28,444 nt of DNA from an uncultured archaeon (GCA_964486045.1 CAZALK010000028.1:1-28444), one strand, 5' to 3'. Shown: positions 13,618 to 28,444, counted from the stretch's first letter. The notes: a model not told the origin generated them from the letters alone. Made by a program: numbers and translations.

Positions 13618-13777
13618 TTCTCTTTTGTAACGGAAAAATTTGATACTCTTCTACTTATATATTAATTACTAGATAACATAAAACTTTAAAGTTATTAATT
13701 AAAGGGTATGATAATTTCCTTTACGAATTGATTGAATAAAATCAGATATAAATAATTTTAGCTAGAGGAATAGATTA

Positions 13778-14116
13778 CTAAGTCATTTTTTCATATATTT
13801 TGGTCCTTTTATCACCTTTTAAATTCTTATTTTTTCTGATATATTTATTTTTCCATAATTCGCTAATATAATTCTGGATTGTACTTTTCTTCTTATCAGT
13901 TTCTTCCATAATTTCATAAATTGAAATTTTTTCTTGTACTTCAAACAAAGGAATTAAAGTTTCTTCAAAAAATCTATGTGAACATTCTCTGATTTCAGGC
14001 TTAAATTCATATAATTTCAGTTTTTTTTTTAATTTATTTATTTCTTTTTGAAATTCTTCTGAGATTCTGTCTAATGTATACAAAATTTCATAAGATTCGT
14101 TTTTGTCGGTATTCAC
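13778..14116 (-). CDS. Small winged-helix DNA-binding protein with N-terminal coiled coil
   Basis: ISIYEIMEETDKKKSTIQNYISELWKNKYI...GDKRTKIY resembles MarR/ArsR-type wHTH with a DxR wing. Divergent from the methyltransferase. Confidence 0.65.
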   Translation of the reverse strand: MNTDKNESYEILYTLDRISEEFQKEINKLKKKLKLYEFKPEIRECSHRFFEETLIPLFEVQEKISIYEIMEETDKKKSTIQNYISELWKNKYIRKNKNLKGDKRTKIYEKMT

Positions 14117-14134
14117 ATAGATTATTAAATATTA

Positions 14135-14270
14135 ATTATATATAATATTATCCATTTTGATTACTGTTATTTTTTAGAGTTTAAATAGGAGTTTATTTAT
14201 ATATAATTCTATATTAAGATTTGAATGCAATAATATTTTATAGTTCTACATAATATTATTATATATAATA
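14135..14270. promoter_or_regulatory. Three TTATATATAA palindromes in the divergent wHTH/dam intergenic region (TATA boxes or operators)
   Basis: Cores at 14136, 14197 and 14259, spaced 61 and 62 bp. Confidence 0.35.
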
Positions 14271-14361
14271 TATATTTAATAAAAATTTTTTAATAAAATA
14301 TTCGTTTATATAGATTCGATTCAAATACTTAGCGATTGATAAATAAAATGGAGGAAAAAAA

Positions 14362-15285
14362 TTGTCAGAGAAGGAAAAATTAGCTTTTAGAGATATTAGT
14401 CAGGATTTTTCCAAGAATACTGGGAATTATACTACTATTCTCCAAAAAAAGAATGGAAATCTTAAAAATGAAATACCACACCCATTTTTAAAATGGGCTG
14501 GAGGAAAAAGACAATTAATATCACAGATGCATAGATATTTTCCAAAAAACTTTAAGAAATATATTGAACCCTTTATAGGTGGTGGGGCAGTTCTTTTTTA
14601 TTTAAAACCAAAACTTTCTATTATCATTGATATAAATAAAGAATTAATCAATTGTTACAAAGTTATAAAAAACAACGTAGAAGAATTGATAGAATTATTA
14701 AAAATCCATAAGAATGAAAAAGGTTATTATTACAGAATAAGAGAAATAGACAGGGATGATGAAAAGTTCGCCAATTTAACTAATATAGAAAAAGCTTCCA
14801 GAATGATTTATATGAATAGATGTTGTTATAACGGCTTATATAGAGTAAATAGTAGAGGTCAATTCAATGTACCTTTTGGTAAATATAAAAATCCTAATTT
14901 CTGTGATGAAGAAAATTTATTAGTCGTAAGTAAAACATTAGAAAATGTGAAGATTGTTCATGGTTCTTTTGAGGTTAGTTTAGATTATGCTGAAAAAGAT
15001 GATTTTATTTATTTCGACCCTCCATATTATCCTATTTCAAAAACTTCATCCTTTACTAGTTATACAAAAGAAAGTTTCGGAGAAGCTTCTCAAATGAAAT
15101 TACTCCGTGTTTTTAAAAAGCTGGATGAACTTGATTGTAAACTTATGTTAAGTAATTCATATAATGAGTATATTAAAGAATTATATAAAGATTTCAAAAT
15201 TATAACGCTAGATGCGAGAAGAGTTATTAATTGCAATGCTGCGAAAAGGGGAAACATCAAGGTTTTACTTATAAAAAATTATTAA
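14362..15285 (+). CDS. dam: Dam/DpnM-like alpha-class N6-adenine DNA methyltransferase
   Basis: PFLKWAGGKRQL, EPFIGGGAV (SAM binding), YNGLYRVN..GQFNVPFG, catalytic DPPY, MLSNS. GGAGG ribosome-binding site 7 nt before TTG. Confidence 0.93.
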   Translation: MSEKEKLAFRDISQDFSKNTGNYTTILQKKNGNLKNEIPHPFLKWAGGKRQLISQMHRYFPKNFKKYIEPFIGGGAVLFYLKPKLSIIIDINKELINCYKVIKNNVEELIELLKIHKNEKGYYYRIREIDRDDEKFANLTNIEKASRMIYMNRCCYNGLYRVNSRGQFNVPFGKYKNPNFCDEENLLVVSKTLENVKIVHGSFEVSLDYAEKDDFIYFDPPYYPISKTSSFTSYTKESFGEASQMKLLRVFKKLDELDCKLMLSNSYNEYIKELYKDFKIITLDARRVINCNAAKRGNIKVLLIKNY

Positions 15286-15400
15286 CAAGATTATTTTGGG
15301 TTTTATTGAAAATTAGGATTCCAGAAATTGAATCGAAAAAATTTATTACTCTTAGAGATCCAATAAATAGTTAAGGCCATTAAAAATCATAAAAAATAAA

Positions 15401-16297
15401 ATGCAAGAAGACAGCAACATTGAGAATTCAGAACAATCTGTAAGAAATGCCTATATTTTTTTATTAAGTCATTCAAGATCGCCTGAAGCATTTTCTAAAG
15501 AAGAATTTAAGATATTTGCTAGTTATACTAATCCAGATAATTTTGATACTTATTTTTCAAAGAAATTTAGACATTTTTTAGATGAATCCCCGAACAATCC
15601 AGGTAAATACTTAATTTCGGGTATATTTAAAAAATATTCTAAATGGGAAAAATTTAGAGCATATTACTCACAAAGTTCGAAGATAAAAGCAAGCTATATA
15701 GAAGAATCTTATAAAAATCTAATGATATTTGAATTTTTCATGCCTTTAACTAATGAACATGACTTAAAATCAGCATTAGACGAAGTTTTTTATAAAGATA
15801 CAGTAAAATTGTCGTTAAATAGAATTCCGAAACAAGAGTTATTTAAGGCTATTCCAAAAGAGGAGGAAGAGTCTGAAGTTCAATATACCGAAAGAATTTG
15901 TAATTGGATCTCTAAAAGATTTGATGGGTACTCTATCGGGACAGTTAGAGGTAGGTTTAAAATAGCAGATTTAAGAACGTTTTCTGAAATTGCTCTTGTT
16001 AGAGAAAGAGGAATGGACTACTTAATCGATGAAACTACTGCTATGGTTCGCTTCATATTTCATATTGGTATCCCCTCAAAAAATCAATTATTATTTAATA
16101 TTGAGCAGTTTAATGGGAACATAGATGAAGATATTCTCAACGCAGATATAATGAAAGAAGTAAATCAAATAAGATTTTTTTTTAAAAATCTATTTGTAAG
16201 AAATATATTAGACCTTGTTAATGGGGAAGATGAAATCTGGATGCTTGAAAGTGGTATAAGAAATCACTTATATATTTGGAAAAATGAGATGGTTTAA
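15401..16297 (+). CDS. Hypothetical protein (298 aa); possible N-terminal wHTH and C-terminal alpha/beta domain
   Basis: Long ORF with typical composition and no certain family match. Confidence 0.75.
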   Translation: MQEDSNIENSEQSVRNAYIFLLSHSRSPEAFSKEEFKIFASYTNPDNFDTYFSKKFRHFLDESPNNPGKYLISGIFKKYSKWEKFRAYYSQSSKIKASYIEESYKNLMIFEFFMPLTNEHDLKSALDEVFYKDTVKLSLNRIPKQELFKAIPKEEEESEVQYTERICNWISKRFDGYSIGTVRGRFKIADLRTFSEIALVRERGMDYLIDETTAMVRFIFHIGIPSKNQLLFNIEQFNGNIDEDILNADIMKEVNQIRFFFKNLFVRNILDLVNGEDEIWMLESGIRNHLYIWKNEMV

Positions 16298-16314
16298 CAA
16301 TAAGAATTTATCTT

Positions 16315-16884
16315 TTAAAGACGGTTATTTTCTTGAGGAGTAGCTTCAAAACTTTTATCTATAAAATTTTTTAACTTTGAACGACCACTAAAATTCCAAT
16401 ACCTTATATCTTGCTCAATAAACATCCATTTTATAATTTTTAACAAAACCTTGATGTCTTCCCCACAAGAAAAAACTATATTTTTTGCCGTTAACCAATC
16501 TATTATACGATCGTCATCTTCGCAAATAAAAATTTTATTTACACTCATAAGAAGAATATTTAAATTGTATTGGTTTTCAACCTCTTTTAATTTTAAATCT
16601 TGAATTATATCTTTATAGCTTGGCATTTTATTAATATTATTTTTATTCCAATTCTCCATCCATATTTGGAAATCAAATCCCATTTTGTATTGAGCTGGTC
16701 TAATTAAATGTAGTTTTCTTCCATCTGAAAACTCTTCAACTATATATTTATATCGAGACACAAATTTTCCAGTGCCTCGTCCGGGGTTTTCTTCCATAAA
16801 TTTAATTACCACACTTTTTCTCAAATCGTTTCTAGAGAAAAGTTTAGGAAGTCTCCAATTAAGGGTTATATAGGAATAAGGCAT
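16315..16884 (-). CDS. Hypothetical protein (189 aa); candidate restriction-system effector
   Basis: Clean ORF with motif-like blocks PGRGTG..SRYKYIVE, RPA....GFDF and KWMFIEQDIRYWNFSGR. Convergent with the dam transcription unit. The function is inferred from context only. Confidence 0.7.
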   Translation of the reverse strand: MPYSYITLNWRLPKLFSRNDLRKSVVIKFMEENPGRGTGKFVSRYKYIVEEFSDGRKLHLIRPAQYKMGFDFQIWMENWNKNNINKMPSYKDIIQDLKLKEVENQYNLNILLMSVNKIFICEDDDRIIDWLTAKNIVFSCGEDIKVLLKIIKWMFIEQDIRYWNFSGRSKLKNFIDKSFEATPQENNRL

Positions 16885-17171
16885 ATTTTTTTCTCTTACT
16901 TAGTGATCAAAACTTTTATTTTAGTTAATTCTATTATAATCCAATTAATAAAGAATTAAGGATTTGTATTTCTTTTATATGATAAATTAGAATTTATAAC
17001 GAAATTAAAGATTATCTCTGTTGCTGCTTCCAATTTTTTTTAAACAATTTGCATTAAAAACTATTAATATTTTTTAAGGTAAAATGTTATCATCATACTA
17101 TAGCTAAATTAAATAAAGGTTTAGAGTATAATTTATTTTAGATATTTATCTTAGTTCAAAGAGAAAATATA

Positions 17172-17399
17172 AATTACTCTAATGTCCATCGAACTTCAGT
17201 GGTCATAAGAGAATTTTCTCAACAAGCACAATTTTTAGTAATCAACCACCGCGAAGAAAATATTGTAAATTCTGATAGAATTTATGGCGTATCTATGCAA
17301 CAAAGTGGAATAACAGATATATTTAGTGTCGATTTGGAGGAAGAAGCTAAAAGACTATTAGAACTTGAAGAAATCGAATCCACAATTACTGAAAATTAA
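17172..17399 (+). pseudogene. smc: Extreme C-terminal remnant of chromosome segregation ATPase Smc
   Basis: (N)YSNVHRTSVVIREFSQQAQFLVINHR...SDRIYGVSMQQSGITDIFSVDL matches the Smc C-terminus after the D-loop, including the H-loop. In-frame TAG at 17139-17141. No Walker B, signature motif, hinge or N-head. Directly upstream of scpA-scpB. Confidence 0.88.
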
Positions 17400-17421
17400 A
17401 AACAAAAAAGGTGAAAAAAAA

Positions 17422-18414
17422 ATATCTGAGGAAAATAATTCAAGTAATAATTACAATTTTCATCAATGGACTGTAAAACAGTTGAAGGAGTTTGCTAAAA
17501 AGAATAGCATCAAACTCCCAACAAAATCAAAGAAAAAAGACATTATTGAATTACTTAAGAAGGTTGTAACACATGATGGATTTGTCAATAAAACTCAAGA
17601 AGTCGAAGAAGAATTAGTAGCTGGTTTTGATGATGATGAAGATTTTGCTTTAATGAGAAAAGAAAAGATGGAATTGAAATTTTGGCAAAAACCACCCTTT
17701 TCAAGCCTATTAGATTCAGAATTAGCTAAAGAGTCTGAAATAGCGTTTTACGACCTATCAAGTTTAGTTGATGAATTTTTTGATAAAATGCTTCATGAAG
17801 ATTTAATCAATTATAAGATATCTGGTATTGCTCTTAAAACTTCAGCTTCATTACATCATTATAAAATATCGAGTATAATACGACAAGAAGAACAAATTCA
17901 AAAAAAAGAAGAACTGGAGCTATTTCGACGACGACATTCACGATCAATCCCAAAAGCCCTACCTCAACCTATACAACCTAAAATGCAAATTGCTACTAAG
18001 GATGAATTATTTGATGCAATGAGATCAGCAATAATTGAAGTTATGCAAAATAAAGAAAAATTAAAAAGAAGAAGAATACGACGTGAAGAATTGAAGGAAC
18101 ACAAAATACAAATGAAATCTAAAGCCCGATTACCAAAAGAACTTCTGAAACATATTAGTGGAAAAGAACAAACAGTTCAGGAATTACATGAATCATGGTA
18201 TAATCGAATAAAGGGCACTATTAACTTAAATAATAAAGAATCTAGCTTCTATGATTTAACCCGCATAATAAAAGATGAAGAAGATAGTGGTATTGGCAGG
18301 AAATTTTCTCTAGTAAGAATGTTTTTAGCATTGATGTTTCTATCTACTGGGAATAAACTGAACTTGGCTCAAGATGAAGATTTCAAAGATATTTCCATAA
18401 ATATTCGACAATAA
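17422..18414 (+). CDS. scpA: Kleisin ScpA with an N-terminal HeH (SAP/Rho-N-like) extension
   Basis: N-kleisin block YDLSSLVDEF...INYKISGIALKTSASLHHYK and C-terminal WHD LVRMFLALMFL..NKLNLAQDEDFKDISI; smc-scpA-scpB order. Start placed at ATA 17422 behind GGTGA; the ORF track gives TTG 17365. Confidence 0.85.
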   Translation: MSEENNSSNNYNFHQWTVKQLKEFAKKNSIKLPTKSKKKDIIELLKKVVTHDGFVNKTQEVEEELVAGFDDDEDFALMRKEKMELKFWQKPPFSSLLDSELAKESEIAFYDLSSLVDEFFDKMLHEDLINYKISGIALKTSASLHHYKISSIIRQEEQIQKKEELELFRRRHSRSIPKALPQPIQPKMQIATKDELFDAMRSAIIEVMQNKEKLKRRRIRREELKEHKIQMKSKARLPKELLKHISGKEQTVQELHESWYNRIKGTINLNNKESSFYDLTRIIKDEEDSGIGRKFSLVRMFLALMFLSTGNKLNLAQDEDFKDISINIRQ

Positions 18415-18422
18415 AAATAATT

Positions 18423-19181
18423 ATGAATGAAAATTTGAATAATTCAAATGACAATTTAGAAGAAGGTTCAGAGGAAGAGTTAAAGGAGGAGTTTGGGAAA
18501 ATCACCGAAGATCTTCCAGACAAAGAAATTGATTTAAATAAGACAATTGAAACTAAAGGGGATTTTACTATTCCTTCGAATGAAAAAACAGAGGAGAGTA
18601 TGAAAATTGGAGATGATGTTAGCGAAAAAGTTGAAGTAGAATCTGTAGATAGACAGATGAGAGAAGTGCACAAAAATTTGGTTGAAGCATCGTTATATGC
18701 TTCAGGTAGGCCTTTAACGATAGAAGAAATATCAAATAAATTAGAATTTCCTAAAAAAGAAGTAGAAGAACTTATCAACGAGGTTGCTTTTGAGTACCTT
18801 GAGCGTTCAACAGCATTGATAATCGCCCAAATAGGAGAAAAATATCAAATGCAGATTAAACCGGAATACACGGAAAAAGTGGCTAAATTTGCTAAAGGGG
18901 GGGCTATAGCAGAGCGATACTTGAGAACCTTAACAATTATCGCTTTAAAACAACCAATTTTAAAATCCACAGTTATTAAATTAAGAGGATCTGGGGCTTA
19001 TGAACACGTTAAATATCTCTTAGATAACGGATTTATAGACGCAATGAAAAAAGGGAGAACTCATGAATTAAGTACTACAGATAAATATGCTGATATGTTT
19101 GGATTACCTAAAGATAAAACTGAGTTGAAGCGTGCTATGGTTAATCAATTAGGAATAAGCGATAACGGAAATCCCAAGTAA
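18423..19181 (+). CDS. scpB: SMC-Scp complex subunit ScpB with acidic N-terminal extension
   Basis: VEASLYASGRPL, YQMQIKPEY, LRTLTIIALKQPI, RGSGAYEHVKYL, TTDKYADMFGL. Confidence 0.93.
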   Translation: MNENLNNSNDNLEEGSEEELKEEFGKITEDLPDKEIDLNKTIETKGDFTIPSNEKTEESMKIGDDVSEKVEVESVDRQMREVHKNLVEASLYASGRPLTIEEISNKLEFPKKEVEELINEVAFEYLERSTALIIAQIGEKYQMQIKPEYTEKVAKFAKGGAIAERYLRTLTIIALKQPILKSTVIKLRGSGAYEHVKYLLDNGFIDAMKKGRTHELSTTDKYADMFGLPKDKTELKRAMVNQLGISDNGNPK

Positions 19182-24551: not shown

Positions 24552-24701
24552 TTTTATCCCTTAGTATTTCTATCCTAATACTTTAATTTTGTTTAAATAA
24601 AATTATGATAATAAGTATTAAAAAAAATTGGGATTTAAACTTATTATTTAGATTCTTAAATTGTTGACTATTTTATATATTTCATTAACTCCGGATTAAT
24701 T

Positions 24702-25000
24702 CTAGGAGAAAATAATAATTTTCCTTTTCTTTGGTCTCTAAATCGTTTAATAGCAATATTCAAGTATTCTGCTCTCGAATCAATTCCATTAAATTTACGA
24801 TTTAGAATACTACATACAATTCCAGTTGTACCAGAACCTACAAAGGGATCTAAAATAAAATCTCCTTCGTTTGATGATGCTAAAATTATTCTGTTTAAAA
24901 GTTCAAGAGGTTTTTGAGTGGGATGTTTACCAAATTTTTTTCACCTTTTGGGATTAACGGAATAACCATACACTCCTCATTTGTTTGTCATTATCATTTT
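24702..25000 (-). pseudogene. C-terminal relic of a beta-class (DpnA-like) N6/N4 DNA methyltransferase
   Basis: Not in the ORF track. Reads NDKQMRSVW / IPLIPKGEK / FGKHPTQKPLELLNRIILASSNEGDFILDPFVGSGTTG...GIDSRAEYLNIAIKR with two single-base frameshifts (~24963, ~24935). The DPPY half is absent. Confidence 0.88.
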
Positions 25001-25017
25001 TCGGTATTTCGGAAAAA

Positions 25018-25260
25018 TTAAAGAAACATTGGGATTTTGAAGATCACAAATTTAAACACGGCAAACTCAGAAAGAAATCCATAGAATATAATTAAAAACA
25101 TGCTAGCTAAAATACATTTAAATGCATCTTTGCGTGGTGTTTTGGAGCTAAAAAGTAATACATACACACTTGTAATTAGGAGAAAAATCCCGATCATAGA
25201 AGAGATTGCCGAAAAAGGTTTTAATGTCTCGAGAGTATCTACTAAATTTAATATTGTCAT
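25018..25260 (-). CDS. Small protein with two predicted transmembrane helices
   Basis: Hydrophobic segments AISSMIGIFLLITSVYVLLF and CILASMFLIIFYGFL separated by a basic loop SSKTPRK. Divergent from the peptidase gene. Confidence 0.65.
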   Translation of the reverse strand: MTILNLVDTLETLKPFSAISSMIGIFLLITSVYVLLFSSKTPRKDAFKCILASMFLIIFYGFLSEFAVFKFVIFKIPMFL

Positions 25261-25394
25261 TTTATTTTTATTGATTTTTTTTTATTATCCTTATTTTTTC
25301 GAGTATTTAAAAGAAAATTTTCGATCAACTTTTTCTTTATATACTTACATTGCATTTTCATTTAACCTTAAAAATTTTAAATAAATGACGTTAA

Positions 25395-26156
25395 ATGTTT
25401 GAAGAATTACCATATATAATCGGATTTATGATATTTTCAGTGATCTTTTCTTATCTAGCTTTTAAATATGTGCCTCCACCATTTTCTGACATTATTAAGG
25501 TTTTAGCAGTGGCAGGAATTGTCATCCATGAATTATGCCACTATCTTATGTGTATAATAACTCGTTCTCCTATAGAAAATGTAACTTTTGTTAAGAAATT
25601 AGATTTTAAGGAAGAAGGAAGGCTTGGATACTATGGAGAAGTAGAGGTTCAAGCACATAGAATTTCATTTTTACAAGCAGTTCTGATAGGGTTAGCTCCG
25701 CTTTATATCTTATTTTGGCTTTTTTTCTTTTTACTTGAAACTCTTCTATATTCCCAAGTAGAACCAGTATTTTTCTTTGTTTTTATTTTTATAATGATTT
25801 CTATTTCACTTTCTGCGGCTCCCTCATTTACGGATTTCTTAATTATTCCCAAAACATTTCTAAATAATTTCAATCATTCAATGTATCAGATTTTATTAAT
25901 TGGATTATCAATTCTATTAACGTTTATAAGTGTTACTGTATTTTATTTACAAGGGTTTCATGAATTCCTTATATATTTAATAGTTACAGGATTTTATTTT
26001 GTGTTTAAGTACGGATTTCATTTCGTTGGTAATTTGTTCTATAAAAATATATATGCTGCAGAAAAGCTATCAAATAGAAATAATTTTAAAAGATATTCAC
26101 GCCGTAGACATAATCCTGAAAAAGAAAGACATTCATATTACAATACAAACAAATAG
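25395..26156 (+). CDS. Multi-pass membrane zinc metalloprotease (M50B-like)
   Basis: GIVIHELCH (HExxH), GYYGEV, IGLAPL, APSFTD (candidate third ligand Asp), about 6 hydrophobic segments and a basic tail. Confidence 0.82.
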   Translation: MFEELPYIIGFMIFSVIFSYLAFKYVPPPFSDIIKVLAVAGIVIHELCHYLMCIITRSPIENVTFVKKLDFKEEGRLGYYGEVEVQAHRISFLQAVLIGLAPLYILFWLFFFLLETLLYSQVEPVFFFVFIFIMISISLSAAPSFTDFLIIPKTFLNNFNHSMYQILLIGLSILLTFISVTVFYLQGFHEFLIYLIVTGFYFVFKYGFHFVGNLFYKNIYAAEKLSNRNNFKRYSRRRHNPEKERHSYYNTNK

Positions 26157-26169
26157 AGGGGAAAATTTG

Positions 26170-28161
26170 ATGGAAACAAAATTTTGGCAAGCACGAGTAA
26201 AAATTACGCAAATCCCAACTAAATTAGAAACGCAAGAATTCGTAAACCCTAGAACTCACAACGGTGCTAAAATCGACATGTCGTGGCTTTTTGATCCTTT
26301 TCTAGACCAAACTGTATATGGTTTGGAACTCACACTGAACAAGACCTTTTCATTCATCTTTATTATGTATGCTGAAACCGAATCAAAAGCCCTAAAAAGG
26401 GGGTATTCGTTCCTTATGAATTTAGAAGAAAGATTCCTTGGACTTTCGGGTGAAGTCTCAGCTCTACCAATTGGTCTATTTATTTTAAAACAAGAATTCC
26501 CCACTTATGAACTAGTTCTCCCTCGAATTCCATTTTTAAAGGGAGATAAATTTCATATCATCAAGAAGATTATCCAATTATTTAAAATGCGGGACACTAA
26601 CGTATTTCAATTCTATATATTCTGGCAAAAGGATGATTCAATTCATATTCACAAATATGACAAGGTTTCTGTATTTGAAATGTATAAACTCAAGATCTTT
26701 ATTAGAATTATACAAGATAATAAGCTTGATAATAATAAGTTAAAGACGGTACAACTTGAGGCTAAATTGGAGTATTTAACTATGGGTATAAGAAATTTAA
26801 TAGGAGAGCGTGCTTGCATTAAAAAAACTCGTCTTAACACTTGGGAAAAAATAATGAGTTCTAACGTCTTTTGGATTAATGATAAAAATCAAAATACTGG
26901 CGCTTATTATTGTTATATTTATGGCAAATTACCTGAAGAGAGAGTTCCGGCATTTATTAGCCCTGATGAGGTTGACTTCACTTTCTCAGATGATTTACCA
27001 TTACAAAAATCATATAGTCCCCCTCTCGTTAATATTAATTATTCCTCTATTAGTGATAAGAATTCCATCTCAATTGGTAATATTGTAGTTAATGGAGTAG
27101 AAACTAAGATAATCAAATCTCTGCCGACAACTCATTTTGCAAATAGTGTTTTTATTGGAGGTCAAACGGGTGCAGGAAAGACTTATCTATTAGGTCATAT
27201 TTGCAATCAATTTTATAATAATGCTCCTGATATTGGGATTCTAATCTTGAACCTGGGGAAAGGTAAACAAGAGGGATTCTATACTACCGATAAAATTCTT
27301 AAGTATGGATCTTCAGATTTACATTTAAGTTATTTTTATGAAGGAGAATATTTAAACAAGTCACTTCAAGAAACTGCGACGTATTTGGCATCATCTCTTG
27401 GGCTTGGAAGTCCTTCTGATAAGATATTGTATGTTGTAATGAAAGCTTTCATAAAAGTAAATGGATCTTTACCACGATCATTAAAGACTTTGTTTAATGG
27501 GTTGAAAAAATATTTCATAGAACACCCATATCATAAGAAATATCAGACCTATATTCTAAGAGCTCTACAAAATCGGATTCCTTCCCTTCTCTCTGATCCT
27601 ATTCTGAAGAAGACCTTAGAATTATTACAGATTAACAATATCCCTAAATGGTTTAATGATTGGAGAAATGGAAAAACAATTTTTATTGATTTATCCATGT
27701 GTGATATTTATGTTAAAAGATTATTGTCTAATGCGATTTTTCAAATGGTCAAAACCCTTATTCCTGATGTGGAAGCAGGTAAACTTCAAAACATAATAGT
27801 GATTGAAGAAGCCTACCAAATATTAGAATTACCAATCACGACAAACCCTAATGCGGATGATTTTATCTCACGAGAGCAATTGGAATTAATATTTAACAAT
27901 TTAATAAGAGAGTTTCGGAGTAAAGGATTATCATTCTTCATTTCAGATAATGCTCCCCATCGGTTATTTAGATGTAGTTTAAGCTTACCAAGCCTTAAAA
28001 TACTATTCAGCCTTAGCCATTTAGATAGCAATCTATTTACTAACAATTTAAAAACACAAGAGTACCTTATTCTCCAAAATCCCCGTTATGCGCTTATTTT
28101 AAATGGGGGTAATCAAGAAATTTTTGTAGTTAAAACTCCTGATTATACTTATTCTAGGTGA
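26170..28161 (+). CDS. HerA/VirB4/FtsK-superfamily P-loop ATPase with large N-terminal domain
   Basis: VFIGGQTGAGKT (Walker A), IFIDLS, IIVIEEAYQI (Walker B), IREFRSKGL (equivalent of HerA REGRKFG). Start set at ATG 26170 after GAGGGG, just past the peptidase stop. Confidence 0.85.
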   Translation: METKFWQARVKITQIPTKLETQEFVNPRTHNGAKIDMSWLFDPFLDQTVYGLELTLNKTFSFIFIMYAETESKALKRGYSFLMNLEERFLGLSGEVSALPIGLFILKQEFPTYELVLPRIPFLKGDKFHIIKKIIQLFKMRDTNVFQFYIFWQKDDSIHIHKYDKVSVFEMYKLKIFIRIIQDNKLDNNKLKTVQLEAKLEYLTMGIRNLIGERACIKKTRLNTWEKIMSSNVFWINDKNQNTGAYYCYIYGKLPEERVPAFISPDEVDFTFSDDLPLQKSYSPPLVNINYSSISDKNSISIGNIVVNGVETKIIKSLPTTHFANSVFIGGQTGAGKTYLLGHICNQFYNNAPDIGILILNLGKGKQEGFYTTDKILKYGSSDLHLSYFYEGEYLNKSLQETATYLASSLGLGSPSDKILYVVMKAFIKVNGSLPRSLKTLFNGLKKYFIEHPYHKKYQTYILRALQNRIPSLLSDPILKKTLELLQINNIPKWFNDWRNGKTIFIDLSMCDIYVKRLLSNAIFQMVKTLIPDVEAGKLQNIIVIEEAYQILELPITTNPNADDFISREQLELIFNNLIREFRSKGLSFFISDNAPHRLFRCSLSLPSLKILFSLSHLDSNLFTNNLKTQEYLILQNPRYALILNGGNQEIFVVKTPDYTYSR

Positions 28162-28167
28162 TTGTTT

Positions 28168-28444
28168 TTGTCTGGGGAAAGTCCTGGTGATCAAACTCCT
28201 GATGAGATTCCGGAGGAAGAGAGTTTTAATCCAAATGATGAGAAACCTGATGAGATTCCGGAGGAAGAGAGCTTCAACCCAAATTATGATGAATCAGATG
28301 AGATTCCGGAGGAAGAGAGTTTCAACCCAAATTATGATGAATCAGATGAAATTCCAGATGAGGATGATTTTAATCCAAATGTAGATGAGTCAGATGAGAT
28401 TCCAGAGGAAGAGAGCTTCAACCCAAATTATGATGAATCAGATG
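28168..28444 (+). CDS. N-terminus of a highly acidic tandem-repeat protein (runs off the window)
   Basis: AGGTGA (overlapping the ATPase stop), 6 nt, then TTG TCT. Frame open to the end: MSGESPGDQTP(DEIPEEESFNPNYDES)n. Not in the ORF track. Confidence 0.8.
   Translation, partial: MSGESPGDQTPDEIPEEESFNPNDEKPDEIPEEESFNPNYDESDEIPEEESFNPNYDESDEIPDEDDFNPNVDESDEIPEEESFNPNYDESD
28201..28444 (+). repeat. 48-bp coding tandem repeat, five full units and the start of a sixth
   Basis: Units start at 28201, 28249, 28297, 28345, 28393 and 28441 (GATGAGATTCCGGAGGAAGAGAG...). Many differences are synonymous or conservative in the DEIPEEESFNPN frame. Confidence 0.93.

Follow-up and report, generated by a model that had tools for sequence, protein, structure and literature searches.

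A protease-ATPase operon as the candidate motor arm of a WHO-like homing element in Asgard archaea

What kind of unit is the four-gene block that lies beside a broken DNA methyltransferase (MTase) gene at the right end of contig C28 of an uncultured archaeon? This contig (28,444 bp) was analysed at its full length and is referred to here as the window. It belongs to a 5.18-Mb genome of 45 contigs with about 30% G+C, and the named relatives of its proteins are all Asgard archaea (Promethearchaeota; some labelled Thor-, Odin-, Hel- or Hodarchaeales). A reading made from the sequence alone had proposed that the block, which encodes a small two-helix protein, a membrane protease, a HerA/VirB4-like ATPase and an acidic-repeat protein, is an undescribed translocation system or mobile element. 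Based on comparison with paralogous loci, related genomes and metagenome contigs, positions 24997-28444 are probably the motor arm of an integrase-free homing element, similar in its working to the WHO elements of yeasts, in one family of Loki-type Asgard archaea.

The operon and its recurrence

The following features, among them an 80-amino-acid (aa) open reading frame (ORF) with two predicted transmembrane (TM) segments, lie at the right end of the window.

25018-25260, minus strand: 80-aa ORF, hydrophobic segments at aa 19-37 and aa 50-73
25330-25394, plus strand: upstream region of the core operon; the similarity of three close copies (A, B and C, see below) begins at about 25330 with TTTTTCTTTATATACT
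25395-26156, plus strand: polytopic membrane metalloprotease-like protein, 253 aa, HELCH at aa 45-49, about 5-6 hydrophobic segments
26170-28161, plus strand: two-domain P-loop ATPase, 663 aa, no TM segment, Walker A GQTGAGKT, Walker B IVIEEA, arginine motif FRSKG
28168-28444, plus strand: N-terminus of a giant protein, acidic 16-aa repeats (DESDEIPEEESFNPNY), TTG start, open at the contig end

All four ORFs (80-aa, HExxH membrane protein, P-loop ATPase, acidic-repeat ORF) were found where the sequence-only reading had placed them, and so were the gaps of 13 and 6 nt that it had described, each with a ribosome-binding site. The protease stop codon (26154-26156) is followed by 13 nt including GAGGGG and then by the ATG (26170) of the ATPase gene; the ATPase stop codon (28159-28161), which is spanned by AGGTGA, is followed by 6 nt and the TTG (28168) of the repeat ORF. 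The same arrangement of AGGTGA, 6 nt and TTG is present in the paralogue on contig C1. Within the conserved upstream region, about 50 nt 5' of the protease start, a TTTATATA box was identified as a candidate archaeal TATA box. A scan for sigma-70 promoters, a model not relevant to archaea, gave no enrichment, and a terminator scan identified none within the operon.

About eight paralogous loci were identified in this genome. Other protease-ATPase pairs are encoded at 705 kb (99% aa identity) and 262 kb of C1, on C41 (84-94%) and on C16, and further ATPase paralogues were located on C14 (with a giant gene), on C12 and on C1 at 505 kb. The copies of the window, C1 and C41 are called A, B and C, respectively. 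Outside this genome, the protease gene, the ATPase gene and a large downstream gene stand in the same order on the Asgard contigs L019, L020 and L021. Eighty metagenome loci carry a relative of the protease; in 47 of the 53 that had enough downstream sequence to be counted, the ATPase gene lies directly 3' of the protease gene, at a median distance of 52 nt. At C14 and at G018:C35 the ATPase and giant genes are adjacent without the protease gene. The protease, ATPase and giant genes form a recurrent, tightly coupled operon. Recurrence in Asgard genomes, which the sequence-only reading had named as a check on the whole block, was observed for these three genes, the 80-aa ORF being the exception (1/54 related loci).

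The distribution of the operon is patchy. Members of the ATPase family were found in nine of 18 genomes of the same genus, in 0-9 copies and with stop-containing fragments among them, and in 15 of the 40 genomes of its own family as against none of the 160 that represented 26 further families of the phylum (E<=1e-40). Many of the copies are situated at contig ends. A patchy, multi-copy ATPase of the FtsK/HerA superfamily could be taken for the genome-packaging enzyme of a provirus remnant. That explanation is hardly probable at all: the four window proteins, among them the ATPase, the protease and the 80-aa protein, gave no PHROG match, the neighbours scanned contained no capsid, portal or integrase domain, and the protein is 663 aa long with a VirB4-like N-domain. 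A32-type packaging ATPases are short, unlike this one. Full-text searches on Asgard HerA, VirB4, LAGLIDADG and mobile elements yielded no description of the module, and the sequence-only view of an inserted mobile unit not described before was borne out.

Since the window is the whole contig, its repeat protein was cut by the assembly and not by biology. The repeats that are visible (28201-28444) have a period of 48 nt, 5.1 copies and 84% matches (Tandem Repeats Finder). The complete paralogues on C1 and C14 are 1461 and 1421 aa long, and complete giants in general span 1100-1460 aa. They consist of acidic N-terminal repeats, a long charged region, a common helical "carrier" region and a C-terminal end which differs from one giant to another. 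The C-terminus of the C14 giant matched LAGLIDADG_3 (E 2.5e-15), and that of the C1 giant has treble-clef zinc fingers and matched phrog_559 ("HNH endonuclease", E 1e-48) and phrog_681. The matches were weak for the C-termini of the C31 giant (HNH-type, E 0.0016) and the C20 giant (LAGLIDADG). Nothing was detected by Pfam in the C31 and C20 giants as whole proteins, or by PDB sequence searches with giant carrier or C-terminal parts; none of the giants scanned contained a Hint/intein domain or, by Pfam, a known trafficking domain.

At the other end of the protein, acidic repeats with the pattern [FWY][DN]PN (FNPN, WDPN, FDPN) were identified at the N-terminus of 14 of 17 downstream giants on other contigs, the rest of the repeat being variable. 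Because this pattern stays constant in otherwise differing repeats, it may represent a short linear motif which is read by a conserved partner. The suggestion that the repeat protein is cargo or scaffold fits what is evidently the N-terminus of a large modular protein. In one branch of loci (L071, L082, L093) the protein downstream of the ATPase begins with basic proline-rich repeats (PRHKIEPRK-like) and not with acidic [FWY][DN]PN repeats.

Host-gene ends, empty sites and the divided element

The giant genes lie at the ends of host genes. The C1 giant gene (C1:704943-700561) converges on smc, with 72 nt between the two stop codons; on C31, C20 and C14, too, the giant gene borders on a host gene. 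In all four elements examined the 3' tail of the host gene is duplicated; the new copy is attached to the gene and an old, diverged copy is found on the far side of the element. For smc, the old copy is in the window.

17169-17396, plus strand: old smc tail, last 76 codons, 83% aa and 80% nt identity to the end of the intact smc (C1:696061-700488)
17365-18414, plus strand: scpA, directly after the old smc tail
18423-19181, plus strand: scpB (PF04079, E 1e-33)

An old partial copy of the 432-aa and 133-aa genes beside the C31 giant lies at C1:714689-715716, the 250-aa gene that adjoins the C20 giant is repeated at C2:12684-13361 (93%), and the tail of the 563-aa gene next to the C14 giant occurs again at C14:51214-51363. 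Empty sites were identified for two of the targets: smc-scpA-scpB is uninterrupted in genomes G002 and G006, and the 432/131-aa locus in G006, G002 and G018. The smc site of G018 is filled, with the order smc, a 694-aa homologue of the giant (58% identity), six cargo genes, a 76-aa old tail and scpA. These comparisons support a view in which the element would invade the 3' end of a host gene, bringing a substitute end with it, and in which the invasions appear to be matched in site to the type of nuclease.

Relics of the tail of the C20 neighbour were also located at C2:20070-20165 and C2:22564-22695, so that there are three copies (93%, 69% and 51%); by analogy with the clusters of yeast WHO elements, these look like a graveyard of successive invasions. 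The smc-scpA-scpB operon is itself split in this genome, with the old 76 codons before scpA-scpB and the intact smc on C1 beside a giant nuclease gene. As a result of this split scpA and scpB may have lost their native promoter context.

WHO elements of Torulaspora and Lachancea yeasts are free-standing nuclease genes just 3' of a housekeeping gene, the 3' end of which is replaced at each integration (Coughlan et al. 2020, eLife, PMC7282813). Old 3' fragments accumulate beyond the element (PMC7282813). The Asgard loci resemble them in that the nuclease gene abuts its target, the 3' end of the target is replaced, relic tails are present (C2:20070, C2:22564) and no integrase was seen. By analogy the element would spread by homing, i.e. 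by gene conversion triggered by the nuclease, in the course of which the 3' end of the target would be swapped for a cleavage-resistant one. There are also clear differences. WHO elements are eukaryotic single genes of the intein-derived Hint-LAGLIDADG-zinc finger type, whereas here the nuclease is an exchangeable C-terminal module (LAGLIDADG_3, phage-endonuclease-like treble-clef or weak HNH-like) of an 1100-1460-aa protein, the hosts are archaeal, the targets include smc, and the element also encodes a membrane protease and a VirB4-like ATPase and carries variable cargo. With differing nuclease modules and no Hint/intein domain, the element is thus WHO-like in its working and not a member of the WHO/HO family.

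The sequence-only reading had not recognised the parts of the element at 13.8-17.4 kb, nor the C-terminal nucleases and the duplicated host-gene tails. These parts, and the remnant of the host MTase gene, are as follows.

13778-16884, mixed strands: cargo island, absent from the smc-scpA and MTase-MoxR intervals of G002, G006 and G012
13778-14116, minus strand: winged helix-turn-helix (wHTH) protein (cargo)
14362-15285, plus strand: D12/Dam-type DNA MTase (cargo; PF02086, E 6e-70)
15401-16297, plus strand: 298-aa protein, function unassigned (cargo)
16315-16884, minus strand: 189-aa protein, function unassigned (cargo)
17058-17168, no strand: left-terminal element segment, abutting the old smc tail; window 17058-17228 is 88% identical, in opposite orientation, to L053:1-171
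24674-24976, minus strand: 3' remnant of the host DNA MTase, frameshifted, 65-70% aa identity to aa 191-291 (or 178-278) of the syntenic MTase

In G002, G006 and G012, which show the ancestral order, smc, scpA and scpB read forward and are followed by an aminoacyl-tRNA synthetase gene, a PFL-like gene and the MTase gene, all reversed, and by a forward MoxR gene. The left part of the window reads VWA and MoxR (both reversed), wHTH (reversed), Dam-type MTase and 298-aa protein (forward), 189-aa protein (reversed), and then the old smc tail, scpA and scpB (forward). To the right follow the aminoacyl-tRNA synthetase gene, the PFL-like gene, the MTase remnant and the 80-aa ORF (all reversed), and the forward protease, ATPase and giant genes. 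A version without the rearrangement was identified on the metagenome contig Ga0209976_10004401 (L053). There, the old smc tail (reversed) and 110 nt in common with window 17058-17168 are followed by reversed genes for an ADP-ribosylglycohydrolase and DarT, the reversed 80-aa ORF, and the forward protease, ATPase and giant genes. Positions 1-171 of L053 are the far-left end of its element, and the similarity of L053 to the window covers 24997-28444 (82%) as well as 17058-17228 (88%, opposite orientation). The L053 cargo (207-2636) consists of a DarT ssDNA ADP-ribosyltransferase (PF14487, E 1e-31) and the ADP-ribosylglycohydrolase (PF03747, E 9e-41), and the Dam-type MTase island of the window occupies the corresponding position.

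A single inversion of about 11 kb, from approximately 13.7 to 25.0 kb, would explain the window arrangement exactly if it started from an L053-like layout. One breakpoint (24976-24997) is located inside the element, between the cargo and the 80-aa ORF, and the other in the host MTase gene, the 5' half of which is lost (13618-13777). It follows from this model that the island at 13778-16884 is the cargo of the element and that the truncated MTase is due to a secondary rearrangement and is not the insertion site. The intact MTase has 278-291 aa and is encoded upstream of the PFL-like gene in the same-genus genomes G002, G006 and G012; of the gene broken in the window, the first 160-190 codons could be located nowhere in the assembly. 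The sequence-only reading had taken the truncated MTase gene next to the block as the sign of an insertion there. The truncation is real; the 3' end of smc was the primary target. Insertion into the MTase gene as the primary event was considered and rejected, the comparison with the relatives and L053 favouring a later inversion. In the window, we think it probable, one member of a family of mobile elements of 11-12 kb has been split by the inversion into a motor arm and a part with the cargo and the left terminus.

Neighbours of this kind might instead suggest an anti-virus defence system located in defence islands and composed of a HerA-type ATPase, a nuclease effector and a protease, with tail duplications stemming from unrelated integration. 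The Dam-type MTase island and the DarT and ADP-ribosylglycohydrolase genes of L053 are in keeping with this, as are the patchy multi-copy distribution and the weak PADLOC matches of the ATPase (HerA, E 7e-06; mad8, E 1e-11). Yet the defence-type genes are variable cargo and not conserved core, the nuclease end abuts a duplicated host-gene tail in every complete copy examined, the same nuclease type is found at smc in two genomes, and the nucleases are of types that match LAGLIDADG or phage endonuclease families with an HNH annotation. Defence is therefore regarded as a very improbable explanation.

Several observations weigh against the homing element. The filled smc site of G018 has neither ATPase nor protease alongside, from which it follows that the nuclease part can persist without the motor. 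The window's own giant ends after 92 aa at the contig edge, and a 2.4-kb exact repeat (see below) leaves its nuclease end ambiguous, between the smc-adjacent end of C1 and that of C31. Allele-specific cleavage of the empty target by the nuclease modules is a prediction from domain homology. Although no integrase or transposase domain was detected in the cargo ORFs scanned, and no relaxase or capsid gene was seen, several of the cargo ORFs have no recognisable domain, so that an unrecognised recombinase is possible. Phages 21 and e14 also supply a substitute 3' end, that of icd, but do so via an integrase. Further points of this kind concern the ATPase and are given with it.

Protease, ATPase and their possible roles

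In an alignment of the protease-like protein with 38 relatives, H45, E46, H49, P143, S144 and D147 are invariant, and both the HExxH and the PSxxD (D147) motifs lie inside hydrophobic segments. PF13398 (Peptidase_M50B) was matched by 21 of the 38 relatives (best E 6e-07) and PF02163 (Peptidase_M50) by 19; the window protein itself gave no Pfam match at E<=0.1, and its closest named clusters in the protein atlas are M50B/DUF3267. Given the invariant HExxH...D residues and the M50B matches of its relatives, it is predicted to be a distant member of the M50B/site-2-protease-like clan, with catalytic residues that look intact. It shares with site-2 proteases of the M50/M50B type a polytopic build and two conserved elements in TM helices, namely HExxH and, in a later helix, the Asp of PSxxD. 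Unlike them, it falls below Pfam detection, has neither PDZ nor CBS domains, and ends in a conserved basic tail.

A second M50B-like subfamily is syntenic and mostly single-copy in genomes of the same genus (L032-L036), where it is followed by conserved 105-aa and 240-aa genes and by no ATPase gene; in this genome it is represented at C1:196920-197654 and C23:54079-54810. Linkage of protease and ATPase is therefore limited to one subfamily, and the second one may be the cellular ancestor of the element-borne protease. In the C16 copy (L012), two inserted ORFs, of 414 and 129 aa, separate the protease gene from the ATPase gene. The 414-aa ORF has a 412-aa homologue beside an unrelated protease paralogue on C1 at 197 kb, and the insert is probably an insertion sequence.

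The ATPase was modelled with AlphaFold (predicted local distance difference test 87.6), and its N-domain (aa 1-295) was also folded alone. The C-domain (aa 285-663) matched DndH-C (Z 25.6), a HerA trimer (8yhx; Z 23.2) and the C-domain of VirB4 from T. pseudethanolicus (Z 22.5, 331 aa aligned, root-mean-square deviation (rmsd) 3.7), and less well TrwB (Z 20), FtsK and EccC (Z 14). For the N-domain alone, the best of 48,161 representative chains was TrwK/VirB4 (Z 9.9, 222 aa aligned, rmsd 4.3), followed by a chain of the ESX-3 complex (Z 8.6) with the remainder at 7 or below; no HerA chain was among the 50 best matches listed. Foldseek gave E 2e-3 for the N-domain, and the similarity to VirB4 is of middling strength. 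The only Pfam or NCBIfam matches of the protein were DUF87 across 40 residues (25 bits) and SXT_TraD (E 0.063). A profile of 35 relatives found no PDB sequence at E<=0.01, and a PDB sequence search with the ATPase itself found nothing. On the basis of the best match of the N-domain and the VirB4 match of the C-domain, the models are suggestive of a VirB4-like two-domain architecture.

The ATPase thus resembles VirB4/TrwK in both of its domains and in the linkage of its gene to that of a membrane protein. It differs in having an M50B-like protease as its partner, and some features weigh against the explanation of the element given here. No VirB4/CagE/TrbE family was matched in Pfam or NCBIfam at E<=0.1. 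For the C-domain, DndH and defence-type HerA are no more distant than VirB4. The Walker B motif of the window ATPase and its two closest database relatives is IVIEEA (aa 546-547), with EE instead of DE. Among the scanned neighbours of the window, the paralogous loci and L053, no other part of a type IV secretion system (VirB3/B6/B8/B10, VirD4/coupling protein, relaxase, pilin) was seen. Nearly all other members of the ATPase family have IDEA, and the change from D to E is conserved within a sub-clade.

A housekeeping HerA had been discounted by the sequence-only reading, rightly as it now appears: no nurA, mre11 or rad50 gene was found at the loci scanned, the family is patchy and multi-copy, and the N-domain looks VirB4-like. 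HerA-effector complexes (HerA-NurA; Sir2-HerA, DUF4297-HerA) are alike in that a HerA-type ATPase domain (Z 20-23) stands beside a nuclease-bearing protein. In the Asgard loci, by contrast, there is no NurA, Mre11, Rad50, Sir2 or DUF4297, the N-domain best matches VirB4 and an ESX-3 chain and not HerA, the ATPase is linked to a membrane protease, and the nuclease partner is a giant modular protein at host-gene ends. A related explanation is that the ATPase and the nuclease form an intracellular machine, like HerA with NurA, in which the ATPase would be a hexameric DNA translocase for resection and gene conversion at the cut target, with nothing crossing the membrane. It would account for the C-domain matches to HerA of HerA-NurA and of defence complexes (Z 20-23), the PADLOC HerA/mad8 matches, the lack of a TM segment in the ATPase, and the adjacency of ATPase and giant genes where the protease gene is missing (C14, G018:C35). 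It would leave aside that in 47 of 53 loci the ATPase gene is coupled to one for a polytopic membrane protein, and that the N-domain is closest to VirB4 and the ESX-3 chain, and it is considered quite unlikely.

The sequence-only reading had drawn an analogy with the crenarchaeal Ced systems. The Ced/Ted systems of DNA import also have an archaeal HerA/VirB4-superfamily ATPase near small membrane proteins. CedB is membrane-anchored, whereas the window ATPase has no TM segment; the 80-aa ORF with its two TM segments is not conserved with the module; and in the ORFs read, no CedA-like protein with six TM segments came to notice.

The near-obligate link between a soluble ATPase and a membrane protein, the multivalent motif of the giant and the absence of another transfer or integration gene would together favour a role in membrane translocation. 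The membrane protease might anchor the ATPase hexamer at the membrane or carry out processing for it. The ATPase might handle the giant protein, perhaps via its multivalent acidic repeats, the element DNA, or both, and such handling could give the element an otherwise missing route between cells. In its fullest form, which we put forward only as a tentative and rather doubtful proposal, this would be a self-transmissible homing element without integrase, relaxase or capsid: the protease and ATPase, as a minimal membrane apparatus, would recognise the giant by its acidic repeats and export it, possibly with DNA, into neighbouring Asgard cells, the nuclease would cut an essential gene there (smc, for example), and in the course of repair the element would be copied in along with the resistant end, as a protein-piloted gene drive.

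Export of the giant could have another purpose. It may be a polymorphic nuclease toxin which cuts an essential gene of neighbouring cells, with the resistant tail serving as immunity of the producer. Exchangeable C-terminal nuclease modules on a common N-terminal and central carrier are a hallmark of polymorphic toxins, giants that are otherwise unrelated keep the repeated N-terminal motif, the protease is embedded in the membrane, and the ATPase falls into the fold group of secretion ATPases, with an N-domain that best matches VirB4 and the ESX-3 chain. But two complete giants, read by eye, showed no signal peptide or TM segment, and no small immunity gene was found 3' of the nuclease, where the target gene itself follows. 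The duplicated tails and empty sites show insertion of DNA, which toxin delivery does not explain. LAGLIDADG-type domains are typical of site-specific homing enzymes and not of toxins. Toxin export is accordingly thought to be unlikely.

A homing element which replaces the end of a gene follows a known principle; its motor arm is unprecedented and would be categorically new if it proved to be a transfer device. Replacement of 3' ends by homing has so far been described for yeast WHO/HO elements. Almost nothing is known of the movement of DNA between Asgard archaea, the closest prokaryotic relatives of eukaryotes, and the element is a concrete candidate for a route of cell-to-cell transfer in which homing of the eukaryotic style is joined to a secretion-type ATPase and a membrane protease. 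Such elements reshape genomes, as seen in the split of smc from scpAB, the broken MTase gene and the inversion of about 11 kb, and their 2.4-kb exact repeats interrupt or confuse assemblies. Exchangeable nucleases aimed at conserved genes could yield rare-cutting enzymes, and the acidic motif a recognition signal.

The 80-aa ORF, exact repeats and contig ends

The 80-aa protein had been proposed as a pilin-like core part of the system. The DNA similarity between the window and its close paralogues begins at 25247 (C1 copy) or 25330 (C41 copy), from which it follows that copies B and C do not share the ORF. Two metagenome homologues of 80 aa were identified (86-88% identity); linkage to the module is confined to a single locus of the 54, L053, where a homologue adjoins the protease gene in the same divergent position as in the window. 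Substitutions by codon position (4/7/9) provide weak evidence of coding. The ORF may be a real gene, specific to a lineage and belonging to the variable left arm of the element, outside the conserved core. A core role as VirB2, VirB3, CedA1 or pilin was rejected on its absence from copies B and C and from all but one of the 54 related loci, and the pilin role is unsupported.

Copies A and B are 100% identical over 25474-27867 (2.4 kb) and diverge on both sides, and copies A, B and C are identical over 25974-26973 (1 kb). The identity of A and B reflects either recent gene conversion or an assembly path across the repeat that is not to be trusted. By synteny the flanks are reciprocally mismatched: the left flank in the window belongs to the smc-targeting element, and the old tail of the C31 target is found in the C1 flank past the protease. 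Either the two copies have recombined in the genome, or the window truly continues into the smc-adjacent giant of C1.

Two contigs were considered as continuations of the window. C31, a possible one, starts inside a giant which is 95% identical to the C1 copy. C18 (L016), at positions 1-716, starts with the acidic repeats of the window (92% nt identity), has a stop at 304 and continues with an ORF ending like the wHTH-like C-terminus of the C31 giant; this start is either the relic of a decayed giant or the true continuation of the window contig. Joining C28 to C18 was set aside, as the C18 frame stops at 304 and the sequence beyond it looks like a decayed giant, with repeats fused to the wHTH-like end. 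At the other end of the window, nt 1-55 repeat the end of contig C17 in reverse complement without a difference; the two contigs are probably linked here by an overlap of the assembly graph.

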